Below, piece after piece: positions 16,627 to 64,000 of a stretch of 64,000 nucleotides of DNA. The notes beneath the pieces were generated by a model, which was given only the letters and a program-made list of their open reading frames with translations, had not been told where the DNA came from and made no database searches. The position numbers were made by a program, and so were the translations under genes. How positions within the stretch are numbered: position 1 is the first letter of the stretch; each line of letters starts with the position of its first letter. Source of the stretch: a virus; the IMG/VR virus record IMGVR_UViG_3300048855_000013, positions 1 through 64,000 of that record; one strand, written 5' to 3'.

Positions 16627-16652
16627 AGCTACCTCCTTGGTTGGTTTTGGAT

Positions 16653-16738
16653 TGGCGGCGATAGATGGAGTTGAACCACCTTACATGGGGAGCGCTCCCC
16701 GCTCAGCTCATTTCTGGGCTGTTGCACCGTGCATCGCC
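16653..16738 (-). other. tRNA-like element (86 nt). Possible degenerate type II tRNA.
   Basis: Reverse complement has a 7-bp acceptor pairing GGCGATG/TATCGCC with G plus CCA, a T-arm GGTGG/TTCAACT/CCATC, and a perfect GGGGAGCGCTCCCC hairpin as a variable-arm candidate. The D and anticodon arms do not resolve. Confidence 0.3.
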
Positions 16739-17126
16739 TGTCCCGTTTTTGTGAGTAGCTAGCTCGCAGGGTACAGGATCGGACCCAATTTTCAAGTTTA
16801 CCTCTAACATATGTGTGTCCGGTTCACCACTCCCGGTTCGTACTGTGCATTACATCGTACCCACCTTCTCAGTTAGCTATATCTTATGCATGTTTTCTAT
16901 TCATTCACAAACAAATTCAGTAAATTACCAGCTTGGGCGGCGCTCTGGCTCCCATACTGACCTCCCTAGAATTCGGTGTCGGTGTAGCTCCCTCGTCCCA
17001 CTCGTGGCTCGACCGGGGGAACTACTGGCTGACTTCTCACATACTCGATGAAGTTGAGAGTCAGTACCACAATCAGGATTACGAATAGTCCCGAAAGTAG
17101 GATTCCGTTGAAGAGTGCTAAATCTG

Positions 17127-19062: not shown

Positions 19063-19460
19063 ACCTCCTGGTATTCCGACGCCGGGGCGTCAAGTATCTC
19101 TACATTGTCTGTGGTGTGGAACAAATCAAGCGTTGCTCCCCATGAACGTGTGTGGTGTCCAAATACTATCCACACTTGTCCCATCGTGTCAACAACTTTA
19201 TTGGCACGACGTTTCCGCTGGTCGTACCCGGCTGCATAGCCAAGCATGTAGGCGTCACGGTAGAACTCTACCGAATCGTGGTCAGGCGTCGCTGCCTGAC
19301 CGTTCAATCCGGCGTGATGTCCCAGCTTGTATTGGATCGTCTTCTCCGGCGCTTGCACAATGGTCACAGCACCTACCGGAGCACCCTGCAACATTTGATG
19401 CATGCTCACGAGAAAAGCACCTCCTCTTGCTGCATGTAGGCCACCATATCGCTGTACCAT
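19059..19460 (-). CDS. hypothetical protein
   Basis: ORF. Confidence 0.4.
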   Translation of the reverse strand: MVQRYGGLHAARGGAFLVSMHQMLQGAPVGAVTIVQAPEKTIQYKLGHHAGLNGQAATPDHDSVEFYRDAYMLGYAAGYDQRKRRANKVVDTMGQVWIVFGHHTRSWGATLDLFHTTDNVEILDAPASEYQEV

Positions 19461-19472
19461 CTCCAGAACATC

Positions 19473-19700
19473 TCAGTACCCTCCTTGGGTGCAGTAGTCA
19501 TTTGCGTGGTCACATCCGGCATGTCCGTACCGATATGAGTTGTTATGAGCTTCCCGCTTTTCGGGAGTATCGAGCATCCTTGCCCAGTCCTCCCGCATCC
19601 ACTCGTGGAAGGCATCTTGACTTTCAAATCCGTTGTACATGACGTTTACTCCCAGCATTCTATCAGATTGAGTGATGCTCACTAAACTACCACTTTCCAT
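19473..19700 (-). CDS. hypothetical protein (first gene downstream of the 19.7 kb regulatory region)
   Basis: ORF. The start sits inside an inverted repeat. Confidence 0.4.
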   Translation of the reverse strand: MESGSLVSITQSDRMLGVNVMYNGFESQDAFHEWMREDWARMLDTPEKREAHNNSYRYGHAGCDHANDYCTQGGY

Positions 19701-19795
19701 GTATTTGTGCTAGGCGGCAAGTATGTCGTGCCTAGTACAAATACATCGAAATTGGTGGCTACAGATGTTGAATTGAGGCGAGATTTGGGCGAAAT

Positions 19796-19936
19796 GGTAC
19801 GTTATCCCTCCTTTTTTGTCCCAAATCTGACCCCCCTCTTATAAAAGAATATATAATATATAGATAATTCATACCTTTATATCACTATTCTAAGAGGGGG
19901 GTCAAAATCGACCCTTTTTGGTAGGGATAACGTACC
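19796..19936. promoter_or_regulatory. AT-rich palindromic region. Two 14-bp inverted-repeat pairs (GGTACGTTATCCCT/AGGGATAACGTACC and TGACCCCCCTCTTA/TAAGAGGGGGGTCA) flank a 49-bp AT-rich core that contains TATAAT-like elements.
   Basis: Read directly. Candidate origin or divergent regulatory element. Confidence 0.45.
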
Positions 19937-20145
19937 ACTTTTTCAAAACCCCATATTGACTTATACTCAGGACTTGATAGAAAGTTAGGGCTACCTAACC
20001 TCCCGATTGGCCTGCACCTTGATGGAGTGGAGAACCTTCTCCACACTCCGCTCAGCAAAGACCTCCCGAGTTTCGGTGGAACCTTTGGTAGCTCGACGGG
20101 CTGACTTGATGGCCTGTCGGGCTCCCTTACTGATCCGAATCCCGC

Positions 20146-20505
20146 TCACAGCACGATCACCTCCCGCTTTGCGTTGTCGTAGATTGCGATTTGCTTGTGG
20201 TAGTCCCCGAGTTCGATAGCTCTGGCTCGGCTACCAATGTTCATGGTCAGGTCGATGAAGAGCATTCCTTCGAATTTCCAGCTACCAAGGTAGTAGGTTT
20301 CAAGGTTGTCCTTGTTCTGCTCCATCCACTCCCAGAGTTCATCGATGGTCAGACTGTACCGAATCAAGGTGTCCCGAGTTGACACCATATAGCCGGTAGT
20401 GAGTTCCATCTGGTAGAACTCGATGTTACCGTGACTGTCCCACTGAACATCGAACGTCCCACCTTCGATGGTGGTGACGTAGTTCACGAACTCCCGGATG
20501 TTCAT
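20146..20505 (-). CDS. hypothetical protein
   Basis: ATG at 20505 with GGAGAGG RBS. Confidence 0.45.
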   Translation of the reverse strand: MNIREFVNYVTTIEGGTFDVQWDSHGNIEFYQMELTTGYMVSTRDTLIRYSLTIDELWEWMEQNKDNLETYYLGSWKFEGMLFIDLTMNIGSRARAIELGDYHKQIAIYDNAKREVIVL

Positions 20506-20775: not shown

Positions 20776-21069
20776 CTAGTTGGCATAGTAAACCGTGCCG
20801 TTCAGGACCACGAATGACTGACCCTGCCCGTTACCCATGTTCGCTGCATCCCAGTAGCAGTTTTCGGTCGAATCTTCGGTACTGCAAGCCGGTAGCTGGT
20901 ACACAGGGTAATCCTGTGCAGGTTCGATGATGGGTGCCGGTTCCGTCACTGGCTCGACAATGGGTGCCGGTGCAGGTACCTGCTCATCCGGGATACATGC
21001 TGCCATCCCGAACACTGCCGATACACCCATAGCCGCCCCTGCAAGGGTAGCGATAATTGTCTTCTTCAC
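20776..21069 (-). CDS. secreted protein or lipoprotein
   Basis: Signal peptide MKKTIIATLAGAAMGVSAVFGMAAC followed by a Pro/Ala-rich repeat. Confidence 0.5.
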   Translation of the reverse strand: MKKTIIATLAGAAMGVSAVFGMAACIPDEQVPAPAPIVEPVTEPAPIIEPAQDYPVYQLPACSTEDSTENCYWDAANMGNGQGQSFVVLNGTVYYAN

Positions 21070-21947
21070 TGTGCTCTCCTATCTAGTGGATGACTGGCAT
21101 CCGACACCTAAGGTATACCCACCTAGGTACCGGATACCACACAACCCTATATAGCAGCCTAGTGTTTCTAGTGCCCTATGAGCGCTCGCCCTCGTGTTCA
21201 TCGTGTGTGATTGGCTTTTCAGCTATCATGGGTGCTGTGTTGTATGTGTAGCATGTGTGTCTATGACAGTGACAATGCATTTGTATGCAGCTTGTGTGAG
21301 TCGAAGCTCACTTGCCCATGTAGCCGAAAGTCAAATCTTTGTTTGTTCGGCCTGTTCTCTGTGTAGTTAGTGGCGAGTCGCACGCCGCAGCTGTTAGTGA
21401 CCTGCACTAGGGGATTTCGTCCGGCGAGCCTATGTGTATAGGCCATTCCGCCCTAGCGGGGTAGCTGTGTTCCTGTTGTTGGTATCAACTTAGCATGTGT
21501 GTTTCTGTGTGTCAAGTCTAAATGTTTGTGTGTCTAGGTGACTGGGCAGAGCCCCTTAGGGGATGTCCTACAGCAGAGATACACATAGAGACTATGACAC
21601 TCACACACGCTATGTAGTTGATATAGATACATACAAGCACAATCACAATGGATATGCAAGCGGTGTAGCTGCCTGCGTTTCGTGTGTCTGTGTTGCTATA
21701 TGTATAGCTAATCACACTGGGGTAGGAATCGCAAGCTTTTTCTTTGAAGCTGTGAATTTGATTTCAATGTTGACTTTTCAGTTGCGAAAGATTTCCACAT
21801 GCTGTACTATGCAACGACAGCGGAGTCGATTCTACTCATGTGTGTATTTGCCCACTTTCCTACATGAGTGCGAATACCCACATTTCGCTGGCTGGAAATT
21901 TGCTGGGTGATTTCTCACGCATGGACTTCTTCTGCTAGACTGCATGC
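21070..21947. repeat. Roughly 900 bp non-coding region with degenerate repeats (CATGTGTGT, TGTGTGTCT, CTATGACA, AGGGGAT). The ORFs listed here look spurious.
   Basis: Read directly. No plausible CDS. Lies at the strand-switch between the left and right arms. Confidence 0.4.
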
Positions 21948-22075
21948 ATGAGAGAATATATTGGTGATCGCCTACGCGCTCGGGCACAGTACGCTGGACC
22001 GGAGCTAGCAGAATTGCTGCTCGATGCCGCAGATGCTGTTGACTGGCTAAACGAAGTGATTGAGGAGTTGCGACT

Positions 22076-27727: not shown

Positions 27728-27799
27728 GCTCATGAAGCTGAATGGTTAAGCAGCACCCTGTCACGGTGTGTGTCGCCGGTTCGATCCCGGTCATGGGCG
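27728..27799 (+). tRNA. tRNA-Asp (GTC)
   Basis: Acceptor GCTCATG/CATGGGC, AC GCACC-CTGTCAC-GGTGT, T GCCGG-TTCGATC-CCGGT. Confidence 0.65.
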
Positions 27800-59906: not shown

Positions 59907-60166
59907 TTTTGTAGTAGACCAATCTCCTGCTGCATTTTGTGGATACGTTGGTCACTCATAATGAAATGCCCTAGCTTCCCAGCCTCACTCAGCGACCATC
60001 CCATGTTGGGATACTTCTCGCGGAGCGTGGTACGAGGAATGCCCAACGTACGACAGACTTCACGGTATGAAAGTCCCTCAACAAGCATATCATATGCGCG
60101 CGTGAATTGCTCGGGAGTTACACTCGGTGGCCGTCCTGTAGGACGACCAGTTCTCTTACCACCCAT
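59903..60166 (-). CDS. HTH DNA-binding protein
   Basis: LSYREVCRTLGIPRTTLREK helix-turn-helix. Confidence 0.45.
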   Translation of the reverse strand: MGGKRTGRPTGRPPSVTPEQFTRAYDMLVEGLSYREVCRTLGIPRTTLREKYPNMGWSLSEAGKLGHFIMSDQRIHKMQQEIGLLQK

Positions 60167-62301
60167 TAGATTCCCTTCCAGGATTCACCCATCGTAGCCT
60201 CTGTTGCAAAAGGCACTACTCCATTGAATACATAGTCACCCGAAGCGATCATTCGGCCCTGGGTGAAGTCAGCTACCTCTTGTGCGATGTCCGCTCTCAC
60301 GTCCATCAAGATAGCGTCATGGATGGTGGCGATAATCACCGCGTCATCCTGATACATCGTGGTCAGATGATCGTGTACCTCCATAGCAGCCACTACGCAC
60401 AGGTCGCTGGCTGTGGACTGGGGCAGGAACGCCAGACCTGAGTTGATCACGTTCTGACGGTTACGCCCTGTGATCAGTTCGCTCTGGAATGTGCGCCCGA
60501 ACGGGGTGATCAGATCACCCTGGAGGTCTAGCACCTTGGCGGTGACAGTCTGTCGCCACTCGTAGAACTCGGGTGCCGCGTTGAAGTAGTTCGTGATGAT
60601 GCGCTGGGCATCTCGCGTTGGCATCTTCAACTCCTGGCCGATGGCAAATGCCTGGCGACCGTAGGACAGGCCGTAGATCACAGCCTTGAGCTTGGCTCGC
60701 AGATTCTTCTTCGTGCCCTTATCGATCTTGTCGAAGTCCACGTTGGGGTAAGCAACAGGCATCAGCGAGTCGAAGAAGTCAGGCATCCCCGGTTGGAACA
60801 GACTGATGAGGTACTCATCCTCAGAGAGACAGGCCATCACACGAAGCTCAGCCTGACTGTAGTCCACTGACACCAGCACTCGATCCTCTGCACGAGGGAT
60901 GAAGGTGCGGCGGATGCTCATCATCTCAGTGTTGTCATCGTCAGGATCACGAGGTTGGTTCTGAATGTTCGGCTTGCTGCTGGACAGACGCCCGGTGTTA
61001 GTGCCCTGTACGTGGAACGTCGGGTACACCATGTTGCCGTTGCGGATGTGCTTCTTCAAGCCGTAAGCGTAGGTACCATCCATCTTGACGAATCCACGGA
61101 CATCGAGCAAGTTGTCGATGAACGACTGCACAGTGCCGGTGACCTGAGGTCGAAGCTCTTCGAGCACCTTCTCTGCTGTGGACTCTACCTTGATCCCGGC
61201 AGAGAGCAACGCTTCCTTGACCTGCTTTGGAGAGTTCGGATTGAACGTGTCGCTTCTCGTGATCTTCTGTAGCTCAGCAAGACTCTCTGCCTTCTTGCTC
61301 GAAAAGAATTCGTGTAGGACTTCAATGTACTCCAAATCAACAGCCGCACCATTCATCTCGATGTCCTGAAACAGATTCACCATCTTGAATTCGTGGAGGG
61401 CTAGCTTAGTTGTGCGCTCATCTACTAGCTTGGATAGGTACTGTAGCAGATGCCATGTCCAGTATACGTCGTAGGCGTTGTACTTGTACAGTACGTCACG
61501 GGGAATCTGAGCGAAGTCAGGGTTGCCCTTCTTGAGGTACTTCTTCTGATCCTTCTCCCACTCAGGTGCCCCTAGAAAGTGGCGGCAGGACTCCTTGAGC
61601 TTGAACTCGCCTAGTCCTGGGAACAGAGTGTGCAACAGAATCATGGTATCGAGGTGACCGTAGACATTGATACCTAGCAACGCGCCGAGCGAACGAAAGT
61701 CAAACTTCATGTTATGAGCAATGAGCTTGCGCCCACTCTTGAGGATGCGAATGATCTGCTCGATAGTCTCGGCAGTCTGTAGGCTCTCCTCACAGAACAC
61801 ATAGATATTCTTCCCGTCATTGATACCGATGCTTAGCAGCGGCTTCTCTTCGGGGTTGAGGGAGTCGTAATCCTTGCCGTTCGAAGACGTTTCGATATCG
61901 ATTACGATGTGCTGGCCTAGAGCCCGCTCCTGTGCAGGAGAGAGCAGACTCACCACCGTGTATTCCATCGGCGCATAGACTGGGGGATGGTACAGCAGTT
62001 CAAGCGCTGCTCGGACCTCTGTCATCGGTGATGCCTTGGTCATGATCTGACCCTGACTGATCGTGGTGACGTAGTTCCAGCCCTGTAGCTCTTCGGTGTG
62101 CTCGTGCTTGTGGCCGAAGGCCAGCACCCGTGTGCTTCTAGGAAGCTTCGGGTGCCAGACCACGACCTCGGTCTTCATGAACTCATCCCACTGCTCATCG
62201 TTCATACCGTTGTCGTAGAACTGGCGCAGCAAGTTGTAGAAGAACTGCTGGACAAGCGGACGAAACTTCGCCTCTTCGAAGTAGAGCGCTAGCTCAGGCA
62301 T
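60166..62301 (-). CDS. polA: DNA polymerase I (family A)
   Basis: Motif A DYSQAELRVMA plus C-terminal motifs. 711 aa. Confidence 0.85.
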   Translation of the reverse strand: MPELALYFEEAKFRPLVQQFFYNLLRQFYDNGMNDEQWDEFMKTEVVVWHPKLPRSTRVLAFGHKHEHTEELQGWNYVTTISQGQIMTKASPMTEVRAALELLYHPPVYAPMEYTVVSLLSPAQERALGQHIVIDIETSSNGKDYDSLNPEEKPLLSIGINDGKNIYVFCEESLQTAETIEQIIRILKSGRKLIAHNMKFDFRSLGALLGINVYGHLDTMILLHTLFPGLGEFKLKESCRHFLGAPEWEKDQKKYLKKGNPDFAQIPRDVLYKYNAYDVYWTWHLLQYLSKLVDERTTKLALHEFKMVNLFQDIEMNGAAVDLEYIEVLHEFFSSKKAESLAELQKITRSDTFNPNSPKQVKEALLSAGIKVESTAEKVLEELRPQVTGTVQSFIDNLLDVRGFVKMDGTYAYGLKKHIRNGNMVYPTFHVQGTNTGRLSSSKPNIQNQPRDPDDDNTEMMSIRRTFIPRAEDRVLVSVDYSQAELRVMACLSEDEYLISLFQPGMPDFFDSLMPVAYPNVDFDKIDKGTKKNLRAKLKAVIYGLSYGRQAFAIGQELKMPTRDAQRIITNYFNAAPEFYEWRQTVTAKVLDLQGDLITPFGRTFQSELITGRNRQNVINSGLAFLPQSTASDLCVVAAMEVHDHLTTMYQDDAVIIATIHDAILMDVRADIAQEVADFTQGRMIASGDYVFNGVVPFATEATMGESWKGI

Positions 62302-62689
62302 TCAGCCTCCTATAGATAGTGGTGCGTGACATCAGAGTGAGGTCAGCAATAGTGTTGACGCTGGTGCCATGCTCCACCATGTCCTTGAGCCACTCCGTTG
62401 CTGCCTTGCGTGAGCCAGTCAGCAGGTAAGTGAGGTAGTCCAAGTGTGCCGGGTTTAGCTTTCCCCGAGCCTCCGGTCGGTTTGGGCCAACAGCTTTACG
62501 TACGCGGCTCTTCGTGGTGCCCACGACTGCCGCGATGGCTGCGATACTAAGCACTCCAAAGGAGTTTAGCTTTCGTATCGCAGCCACCTGGAGGGACTTA
62601 TCGAGTTCATTGAAGAGCCTATTTTGATAGGCAGACTTTGCTGCCATGAGCAGCCGTAGCCGCTCTTCAATCAGATCATCTGGAGACAT
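62294..62689 (-). CDS. HTH DNA-binding protein
   Basis: C-terminal VNTIADLTLMSRTTIYRRL HTH. Confidence 0.4.
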   Translation of the reverse strand: MSPDDLIEERLRLLMAAKSAYQNRLFNELDKSLQVAAIRKLNSFGVLSIAAIAAVVGTTKSRVRKAVGPNRPEARGKLNPAHLDYLTYLLTGSRKAATEWLKDMVEHGTSVNTIADLTLMSRTTIYRRLNA

Positions 62690-64000
62690 AGGTTCCCATC
62701 TGTATCCTTACCAACAATGATACGCTCGCCATCCTTGAGGATGTCGAATAGTGCCAGGTACTCGTGACGCTGCTTGCCGTGCTTGACAGCCCAGTTCACA
62801 GCATCTTTCTGGTAGACAGTGCCACCATTGAGTTCTAGGAACGTCAGGAACATATCGATGTCGCGCTGGATAGCATTCGATGCGACACCCTCAACCATGA
62901 TGATGAGGTCTTCCGTCCACTGTGTGCCGTAGTAGATAGCGGTGAGTGCGTCATTGAGACTCACTTCGTCGCGCTGGTCTGCCATTGCCAACAGGGCTGC
63001 GGTCTTCTTGAGGTTCCAGCCTAGACGCTCGATGCCCGAATCAAGTACCTCAGCACGGGGGTGCTTCTTGATGTAGTCTTCGAGCAGGTCTGCGTAGTCC
63101 TCCAGCCGATCCCATGCCTCTTCTGAGAAGTCGATCATGGCTGGCATGAACCCTCCCTTGACATCGGACGGGAATTCACCCACCTTAGCCTTCCAGAAGT
63201 CGCGAGAACGCATGAGTTCCAGAGCCAGCTTGCGCTTCGTGGTGTCGGCCTGGCCGTTACCACGACGCAAGTTGCGACGACGCTTACCAGACTGGTTGGG
63301 TACTTCACCACGAACAAAGATGTTACGTGGTCCCCAGCCCGAGGCGAAGTCGGATAGCTCTAGGTTCTCCTGAATCTGTGAACGGATTCCGAGGAAGAAC
63401 TGCACGAAGACGACCGGAGTCTCCTCCGTGGCGTTCCCCTTACGGTGCCGAGCGTGAGCCCAGCCATCATAGAGTTCGTTCAACGTCGTGAACAGACCCT
63501 TGAGGTAACCCTTACCACCCTTGATACCCTCGATCAAGTCCTGCACCTCGTCACGGTCGAACATAGATGCTCGGTACGGACGCTTGGCAAGCTCATCAAT
63601 CAGAGTTTCAGGGGTGATGTCGCTGGTGAAGAGGTACTGGTAGTTTCCGATCTGAGTTGCACGAAGCATCTCTTTTACGTAGTCACGAGCGGTACTCTTA
63701 CGAGTCTTGGTAGTCTCACCAGCTAGCACAAAGAACAGGCCGAGCCCGAAGGAATCACTGAACTCTGTTTGAGTTCGTCCCCACTCTCCGAAGATGCACG
63801 AGAGGATCGCTAGGGCACCTGCGATGTGGTATCCACGAGCAGAGTCAGGTGACTTGCTCATGGCCCACTCGGTGTAGCGAGAGATGAAGGTGGACTCTAG
63901 TCCATCAAGCTCTCCCTCACGGAAGAACCTATCCTGCAACTCCTGTGCTGTACCGATTGCAGATGGGCGGAATGTAGCCGGTGCCTTGTGGGCTGGCGTA
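62671..64000 (-). CDS. replication-associated protein of unknown function (primase/helicase-region gene; 5' end lies outside the window)
   Basis: The ORF stays open upstream of the TTG at 63939 to the window edge. Lies upstream of polA. Confidence 0.35.
   Translation of the reverse strand, partial: TPAHKAPATFRPSAIGTAQELQDRFFREGELDGLESTFISRYTEWAMSKSPDSARGYHIAGALAILSCIFGEWGRTQTEFSDSFGLGLFFVLAGETTKTRKSTARDYVKEMLRATQIGNYQYLFTSDITPETLIDELAKRPYRASMFDRDEVQDLIEGIKGGKGYLKGLFTTLNELYDGWAHARHRKGNATEETPVVFVQFFLGIRSQIQENLELSDFASGWGPRNIFVRGEVPNQSGKRRRNLRRGNGQADTTKRKLALELMRSRDFWKAKVGEFPSDVKGGFMPAMIDFSEEAWDRLEDYADLLEDYIKKHPRAEVLDSGIERLGWNLKKTAALLAMADQRDEVSLNDALTAIYYGTQWTEDLIIMVEGVASNAIQRDIDMFLTFLELNGGTVYQKDAVNWAVKHGKQRHEYLALFDILKDGERIIVGKDTDGNLCLQMI

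Follow-up and report, generated by a model that had tools for sequence, protein, structure and literature searches.

What is the role of the 141-bp nested palindrome at positions 19796 to 19936 of this phage DNA? The stretch analyzed here, 64,000 nucleotides long and referred to below as the window, holds at this locus two inverted repeats around an AT-rich core, which a first-pass annotation had read as a candidate replication origin or master regulatory site.

Genome context

The window covers most of the ~70.4-kb genome of an uncultured phage, and the identical sequence is present on Logan contig SRR35925185_6620 (70,432 bp) and on a JGI contig (70,529 bp). No nucleotide match to the window was found among 50,697 phage records, in either the near or the distant search mode. 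The nearest known phage is Curtobacterium phage Yappy (46% identity for PolA, 62% for the terminase, collinear modules), which makes an actinobacterium of the Microbacteriaceae the probable host. Structural genes run rightward from ~31 to 56 kb. Leftward genes extend from position 21069 down to position 1 and occur again beyond 56.5 kb, and they encode NAMPT, RNA ligase, PNKP, PolA, and a DUF3987 protein.

Between 26.6 and 30.6 kb lies a tRNA array of 18 to 19 genes (ARAGORN, Rfam). At 27728-27799 (+) the Rfam tRNA model scores 55 bits where ARAGORN calls no gene, and the array therefore probably has 19 members. A further tRNA-like fold, with a 6- to 7-bp acceptor stem, is found at 16651-16737 (-) inside a 298-nt gap (16627-16924). 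It harbors a hairpin, GGGGAGCGCUCCCC, at the position of a long variable arm, a T-arm loop UUCAACU, and then GCCA; it is called by neither ARAGORN nor Rfam, and its fold z-score is only -1.35.

A long, single-copy nested palindrome

The two nested 14-bp inverted repeats described in the first-pass annotation are both perfect and lie where it had placed them (Table 1). They are concentric, sharing the center 19866, and are the top two inverted repeats of the 64-kb window. Allowing mismatches, the outer arms extend to 18 nt (19792-19809/19923-19940, 94% complementary) and the inner arms to 20 nt (19828-19847/19885-19904, 90%). When the whole window was scanned for ungapped symmetry, this center scored best, with 47 of 75 positions complementary; the runner-up center reached 39, and the maxima in five shuffles ranged from 35 to 38. 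Neither arm occurs a second time within the window, and no 13-mer of the surrounding spacer recurs meaningfully, even with one mismatch allowed. These scans confirm that the palindrome is far beyond chance and single-copy in the window. It was recovered independently from Logan SRR35925185, from the JGI contig, and from a relative, L002 (SRR28602748), and is therefore no assembly artifact.

The 49-bp core measures 83.7% A+T (41 of 49 bp), slightly less than the figure of more than 85% given at first, in a window that is 45% A+T overall. The TATAAT (19852-19857) and TATATA tracts reported for it are present. An alternative pairing, AGATTTGGGCGAAA with TTTGTCCCAAATCT, would enclose one outer arm and compete with the outer stem; in the alignment with L002, read by eye, this pairing is roughly kept.

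Table 1. Coordinates of the palindrome, its spacer, and the genes and regions discussed
Feature	Position	Strand	Description
Structured non-coding spacer	19641..19990	-	350 nt, between the 52-aa gene and the next leftward gene
Long nested palindrome (big hairpin)	19792..19940		149 nt; symmetry center 19866
Outer perfect inverted repeat	19796-19809/19923-19936		14 nt
Inner perfect inverted repeat	19828-19841/19891-19904		14 nt
AT-rich center	19842..19890		83.7% A+T; itself an imperfect hairpin, 71% complementary
Alternative pairing AGATTTGGGCGAAA/TTTGTCCCAAATCT	19781..19828		19781-19794 with 19815-19828; 14 nt, 86%
Second hairpin (inverted repeat)	19689..19756		arms 19689-19715/19730-19756, 27 nt, 89%; loop 14 nt
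Extended -10 promoter-like TGATAGAAT	19657..19665	-	putative; 17 nt upstream of ATG 19640
Hexamers TTGACC-N18-TATAAA	19876..19905	-	putative, weak; inside the palindrome, by eye; kept in L002
Hexamers CTGACC-N19-TATAAT	19827..19857	+	putative, weak; facing TTGACC-N18-TATAAA, by eye
52-aa protein gene (small, basic)	19991..20149	-	immediately upstream of the spacer in all three phages
55-aa protein gene	19473..19640	-	first gene 3' of the spacer; public-contig gene call and sequence
Divergent region	21070-21947		880 nt, non-coding, GT-rich
PolA	60166-62301		
DUF3987 primase-helicase	62671-63939		

The palindrome belongs to a structured spacer between leftward genes

We found no credible ORF in the spacer that holds the palindrome, and its 350 nt fold on the sense strand with a z-score of -12.2. 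The spacer also contains a second hairpin. A 17-bp inverted repeat at about 19699..19746 had been reported here, overlapping the first leftward start codon. The repeat is real, but it is larger than was stated and its 17-nt core has one mismatch; as sense RNA, the full hairpin has a predicted energy of -34.9 kcal/mol. That it overlaps a start codon is questionable: no ribosome-binding site precedes the ATG at 19700, which is probably not a start, while the gene call on the public contig begins at 19640, behind a GGGAG ribosome-binding site. The 55-aa gene that starts there is missing from L002, where another gene comes after the shared spacer, and the downstream edge of the spacer is thus a point of gene-content exchange. 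In L002 (5017 onward), the spacer directly precedes a gene whose remnant in the window (MFWRWYSDM...) corresponds to approximately 19406-19468.

On the other side, the 52-aa gene encodes the same residue as its L002 counterpart at 49 of 53 aligned codon positions (stop included), while only 13 of 26 four-fold sites are identical. A second relative, L003, encodes a 47-aa homologue in which RIS..R..IK..RR..K is kept. An AF2 single-sequence model of the 52-aa protein (pLDDT 89) predicts an extended N terminus followed by two helices (residues 8-21 and 25-51). The protein has no match in Pfam, in PDB sequences, or by Foldseek, and the small proteins neighboring the spacer likewise gave no family match. 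A ribbon-helix-helix assignment was considered for the 52-aa protein and dropped, since it was supported neither by comparing profiles with CopG and Arc nor by Foldseek against the PDB.

Both genes flanking the palindrome run leftward, which does not fit the convergently controlled switch region suggested at first. The palindrome lies ~1.2 kb from the real divergent region, and the leftward path from there leads through four small genes (21069 to 19991) and the spacer into a long leftward operon. The divergent region itself is 85% identical to that of L002, with blocks of 100% identity (21850-21949). It ends in TGCTAGACT, 6 nt ahead of the ATG at 21948, which is probably leaderless, and it is reminiscent of a GT-rich non-coding stretch (694 nt) in the Yappy terminal repeat (DTR). 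In the "non-coding" left part of that Yappy repeat we noticed an apparently unannotated ORF with a signal-peptide-like start (MRRLIAVALIAAIVAST..., L018 210-421, minus strand).

The hairpin stems are conserved, while the loop tip drifts

Few relatives were recovered: a search of ~5.8 billion proteins and three contig collections returned only L002 (SRR28602748, continued on L021) and L003 (SRR30224738), both short Logan contigs, in each of which a spacer gap of ~350 nt occupies the same slot. L002 is collinear with the window; the flanking 119-aa protein is 51% identical and the spacer 94%. The palindrome is present in L002, whereas its absence from close relatives had been named as evidence against an origin or regulatory site.

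Within the spacer, identity to L002 is uneven. The palindrome stems are 97.5% and hairpin 2 is 98.5% identical, whereas the loop apex, the inter-hairpin spacers, and local four-fold sites are ~69 to 80% identical. One half of the palindrome (19813-19861) is identical throughout. As a local neutral proxy, we used the two spacer segments together with the four-fold sites in the 3' half of the 52-aa gene, a set in which 24 of 95 positions differ from L002. Outside its apex, the big hairpin differs at 3 of 122 positions (Fisher p = 3e-7 against the proxy) and hairpin 2 at 1 of 68 (p = 1e-5), whereas the apical 30 nt (19861-19890) differ at 6 positions (80% identical), which is near neutral. Changes in the stem and in hairpin 2 are thus far below the neutral proxy, indicating that both hairpins are under purifying selection and that the loop tip and the inter-hairpin spacers are not. 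Stems that change little while the apex drifts are the pattern expected if the stems matter and the tip does not. Identity also changes stepwise near 20077, within the 52-aa gene: synonymous changes affect 16 of the first 24 codons, the first half of the gene being saturated at such sites, and after codon 25 the gene is as similar to L002 as the spacer is.

L003 is more distant, its 119-aa protein being 43% identical to that of the window. There, the homologue of the small basic gene is followed by a 352-nt gap with no significant sequence similarity to the window spacer. Nevertheless, this gap contains an AT-centered hairpin of ~145 nt (48 of 75 symmetric positions complementary) and then smaller hairpins, and the 351-nt fold has a z-score of -8.3. 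A hairpin in the same slot without sequence similarity indicates that structure and position are conserved beyond the reach of sequence comparison. Because L003 is not alignable by sequence, RNAalifold covariation with it was uninformative; no compensatory double change separates the window from L002, so the two relatives provide no covariation proof.

Searches of IMG/VR with the inner arms, the outer arms, hairpin 2, and three neighboring proteins revealed no relative of the element. In the JGI metagenomes, the inner-arm pattern occurs at 14 loci, none of which encodes a relative of a window protein. One of them, L010, was rejected as a relative, since it is an archaeal ribosomal-protein operon instead. 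An unrelated palindrome family occurs on JGI contigs L004, L006, L009, L010, L012, L014, L015, and L017 (Ga03153xx); its arms are TAGACCCCCCTCTA, its repeats are of the ATTTGGATCC type, and GTGCGCACACACA lies alongside. L010, at least, is archaeal, and these palindromes could be a mobile or regulatory element in their own right.

RNA and DNA forms of the palindrome

As sense-strand RNA, the palindrome folds at -75.3 kcal/mol (z = -10.3) with 58 predicted pairs, 7 of them G-U. The corresponding values are -32.8 kcal/mol (z = -6.4) for DNA and -60.5 kcal/mol for RNA of the opposite strand; it is the G-U pairs that make the sense-strand helix nearly continuous. In L002, two substitutions at the stem extension (C to U and A to U) preserve pairing in the sense RNA or add to it. 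However, the perfect arms contain Watson-Crick pairs only, and the ratio of G-U to A-C positions in ungapped comparison (7:3 in the window, 6:1 in L002, 5:7 in L003) gives a strand asymmetry that is non-significant and inconsistent across the three phages. Action at the DNA level is therefore equally compatible with the data, which fit an RNA hairpin and a DNA palindrome or cruciform alike.

The base of the hairpin (19940, minus strand) lies 50 nt past the stop codon of the co-directional 52-aa gene (19991-19993). No U-tract follows the stem on the sense strand, where the sequence continues AUUUCGCCC, and T5 runs after the stems occur on the plus strand only. A consensus scan detected no terminator and no promoter within the palindrome. 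Its stem, 58 predicted pairs over 149 nt, far exceeds the normal range of terminators, and the terminator-like hairpins elsewhere in this phage are much smaller (15- to 17-nt arms), so the palindrome is more than a routine terminator. The predicted sense-strand double helix consists of an 18-bp outer stem and an inner helix of ~29 bp; RNase III sites call for at least 20 bp of near-continuous double-stranded RNA. At the gathering threshold, Rfam reported only tRNAs, and below it the palindrome resembled microRNA precursors, as a generic hairpin would.

Downstream of both hairpins, the putative promoter TGATAGAAT is conserved in L002, and the like motif TGCTAGACT sits 6 nt before the first rightward ATG (21948). 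The count of this shared 9-nt motif in the window is nevertheless at chance level.

A candidate boundary element on the early leftward transcript

Taken as a whole, the palindrome is a non-random, conserved, single-copy cis element with, likely, some regulatory or cis-acting role, and the description that suits it best is that of a phage intergenic hairpin or cis element. For the role itself, we tentatively favor, with a probability of roughly 35%, a model in which the spacer, through its structure, forms a boundary on the early leftward transcript, with the promoter-like TGATAGAAT coming next. The palindrome would be the main stem-loop of this 350-nt structured spacer, which would divide the short four-gene leftward cassette (21069 to 19991) from the long operon starting at 19640. 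Leftward transcription from the divergent region would cross the spacer, and two hairpins would form in the RNA one after the other, the first of 58 pairs (19940-19792) and the second of 27 pairs (19756-19689). These hairpins may stop or pause transcription or be excised from the RNA by cleavage; such insulation, of a terminator-like or RNase III type, could also shield the upstream message at its 3' end. For the downstream genes, expression would then resume at TGATAGAAT, just ahead of the ribosome-binding site, or be adjusted there. Three parts of this scheme are inferences: activity of the RNA rather than of the DNA, an effect by termination or processing, and a promoter at TGATAGAAT. A more specific proposal, to which we give low odds, is that the 52-aa protein binds the long hairpin, as RNA or as extruded DNA, and gates the passage from the first cassette to the long operon, so that protein and hairpin would form a conserved module.

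Alternative explanations

The replication origin first proposed seems to us unlikely, although it deserves more weight than the other alternatives. The AT-rich center would unwind, and the arms would place copies of an initiator or helicase (the phage's own DUF3987/D5-type primase-helicase, for example) head-to-head or stabilize a cruciform. SF3-helicase initiators load on palindromic origins, and this phage encodes its own PolA and DUF3987 protein. The architecture claimed for the locus is indeed there, an AT-rich core (83.7%) clamped by perfect GC-rich arms, in a single copy per genome, with arms and internal-loop segments conserved in primary sequence; the lack of a significant strand asymmetry also fits a role at the DNA level. 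That architecture is, however, backed by neither skew, iterons, nor adjacent replication genes. Direct repeats between 19500 and 20200 (10 to 18 nt, two or three copies) are at chance level, so that there are no iterons or repeated boxes, and PolA and DUF3987 are encoded far away, at 60 to 64 kb. The skew analysis recommended at first places the cumulative G-C minimum at 21193, in the 880-nt divergent region and not at 19866, an outcome that had been named beforehand as counting against an origin; this test is weak, since skew mostly follows gene orientation in this phage and its sign change coincides with the orientation switch at 21 to 22 kb. Moreover, the AT-rich apex is the least conserved part, and L003 keeps the hairpin without the arm sequence, which would need a co-evolving initiator. 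Slightly less probable is a site tied to the physical genome end, such as terminase recognition or concatemer processing at a DTR boundary. The DTR would cover the first leftward genes, with the spacer at or beside its left boundary. In T7, a palindrome-derived hairpin has been proposed for concatemer maturation. In the syntenic Yappy, the corresponding leftward early region holds an exact DTR of 1602 bp, which includes a GT-rich 694-nt non-coding stretch like window 21070-21947; in Microbacterium phage WaterT, a 1545-bp DTR encodes homologues of the 97-aa protein (20776-21069). By analogy with these two phages, the window phage probably has a DTR covering the first leftward genes, collapsed in the assembly, and the spacer may lie at its boundary. 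The ends of the Logan contig map inside a tail gene, so the assembly was circularized or collapsed, which leaves the position of the genome end free; the palindrome is also single-copy and conserved. On the other hand, the DTR of the window phage is deduced from relatives, no comparable palindrome lies at or near the DTR boundaries of Yappy or WaterT, and we saw by eye no similarity to the Yappy termini.

An operator or promoter switch acting on DNA is more doubtful still. The inner arms would provide the -35-like hexamers of two face-to-face, mutually exclusive promoters, and a phage regulator, possibly the basic 52-aa protein encoded next to the spacer, would use the inverted repeats as operators. 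Both hexamer sets are present and kept in L002, a conserved small basic protein with an extended N terminus and two helices is encoded upstream in all three phages, and the center of hairpin 2 lies ~70 nt upstream of the putative downstream start. Yet neither hexamer set passes the consensus scan, and AT-rich sequence is expected to contain such hexamers by chance; TATAAA is missing the conserved T at its end, and no hexamers match in register in L003. Spacings of 113 and 49 bp between half-sites are unusual for dimeric repressors, and the 52-aa protein has no family or fold match. We consider it very improbable that the locus is a MITE-like miniature mobile element or a recently exchanged mosaic block without function for the phage. 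The 18-nt terminal inverted repeats (94% complementary) and the recombination-like identity step near 20077 speak for this reading, but there is no target-site duplication (the flanks GGGCG and TTTCA differ), and no further copy was found in the window, IMG/VR, the JGI metagenomes, or 185,579 species genomes. The flanks are also collinear and conserved in L002, and the stems are far more conserved than local neutral sites. A protelomerase or site-specific recombinase target, which calls for a palindrome unbroken at its center or for short arms flanking a 6-8-bp core, was rejected, the central 49 bp being only ~71% self-complementary; no integrase or protelomerase was found among the ten large ORFs scanned.

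Comparison with known systems

The proposed transcript boundary has its closest parallels in the T7 RNase III hairpins R0.3 to R1.3 and in the lambda N-leader and sib. As there, the early polycistronic transcript of a lytic phage bears a large, mostly double-stranded hairpin between its cistrons, and its stem is conserved while its loop is variable. T7 RNase III sites, however, are ~50 to 60 nt long, have a defined internal loop, and occur several times per genome, whereas the palindrome is 149 nt long, single-copy, and AT-centered; the likeness is one of predicted fold, and cleavage is putative. Like an intrinsic terminator, the element places a GC-rich stem soon after a stop codon, here followed by a promoter-like element, but it has no U-tract on the transcribed strand, and its stem exceeds the usual length roughly three- to tenfold.

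A small basic protein gene beside a conserved RNA-hairpin region that heads a very long operon is also reminiscent of lambda N/nut and of HK022 put. Unlike in lambda nut, we saw no boxA/boxB consensus at the locus: the nearest match to boxA (CGCTCTTA-like) that we found by eye is CCTCTTA in the inner arm, with no adjoining 5-bp stem carrying a pentaloop, and the hairpin is ten times the size of boxB. We looked for an arginine-rich, RNA-binding partner of the lambda N type; the adjacent 52-aa protein is basic and conserved, with no homology or fold match and no detectable relation to N.

With the lambda ori, the core origins of SV40 and papillomaviruses, and the P4 ori, the palindrome shares a single-copy AT-rich tract clamped by symmetric GC-rich sequence, and as in P4, with its SF3 primase-helicase, the phage encodes its own primase-helicase. 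In contrast to those origins, it has no iterons, no adjacent initiator gene, and no skew signal, and its AT-rich apex is the least constrained part. The T7 concatemer junction, in a lytic phage with a DTR, contains an imperfect palindrome of more than 100 bp near the DTR boundary. The resemblance to our locus would hold only if the DTR position deduced for the window phage is right, and, unlike in T7, the DTR-bearing relatives Yappy and WaterT have no such palindrome.

Significance

Our literature search returned no description of such a palindrome element; for Microbacterium phage clusters, the repeats described are short and multi-copy only. The practical value of the finding is modest: with two relatives only, the locus lends itself well to experiment but is no surprise on its own. 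How lytic actinobacteriophages regulate their genes, and what cis-acting sites they have, is almost uncharted. If the palindrome were an origin or a terminus site, it would show where such phages start replication or cut their genome ends. If the 52-aa protein did act on the hairpin, the pair would control the early-to-middle switch in an N/nut-like manner or through processing, a type of switch undescribed for actinobacteriophages. As a selected 149-nt hairpin heading the main early operon, the palindrome offers a handle on how such phages separate their temporal gene classes.
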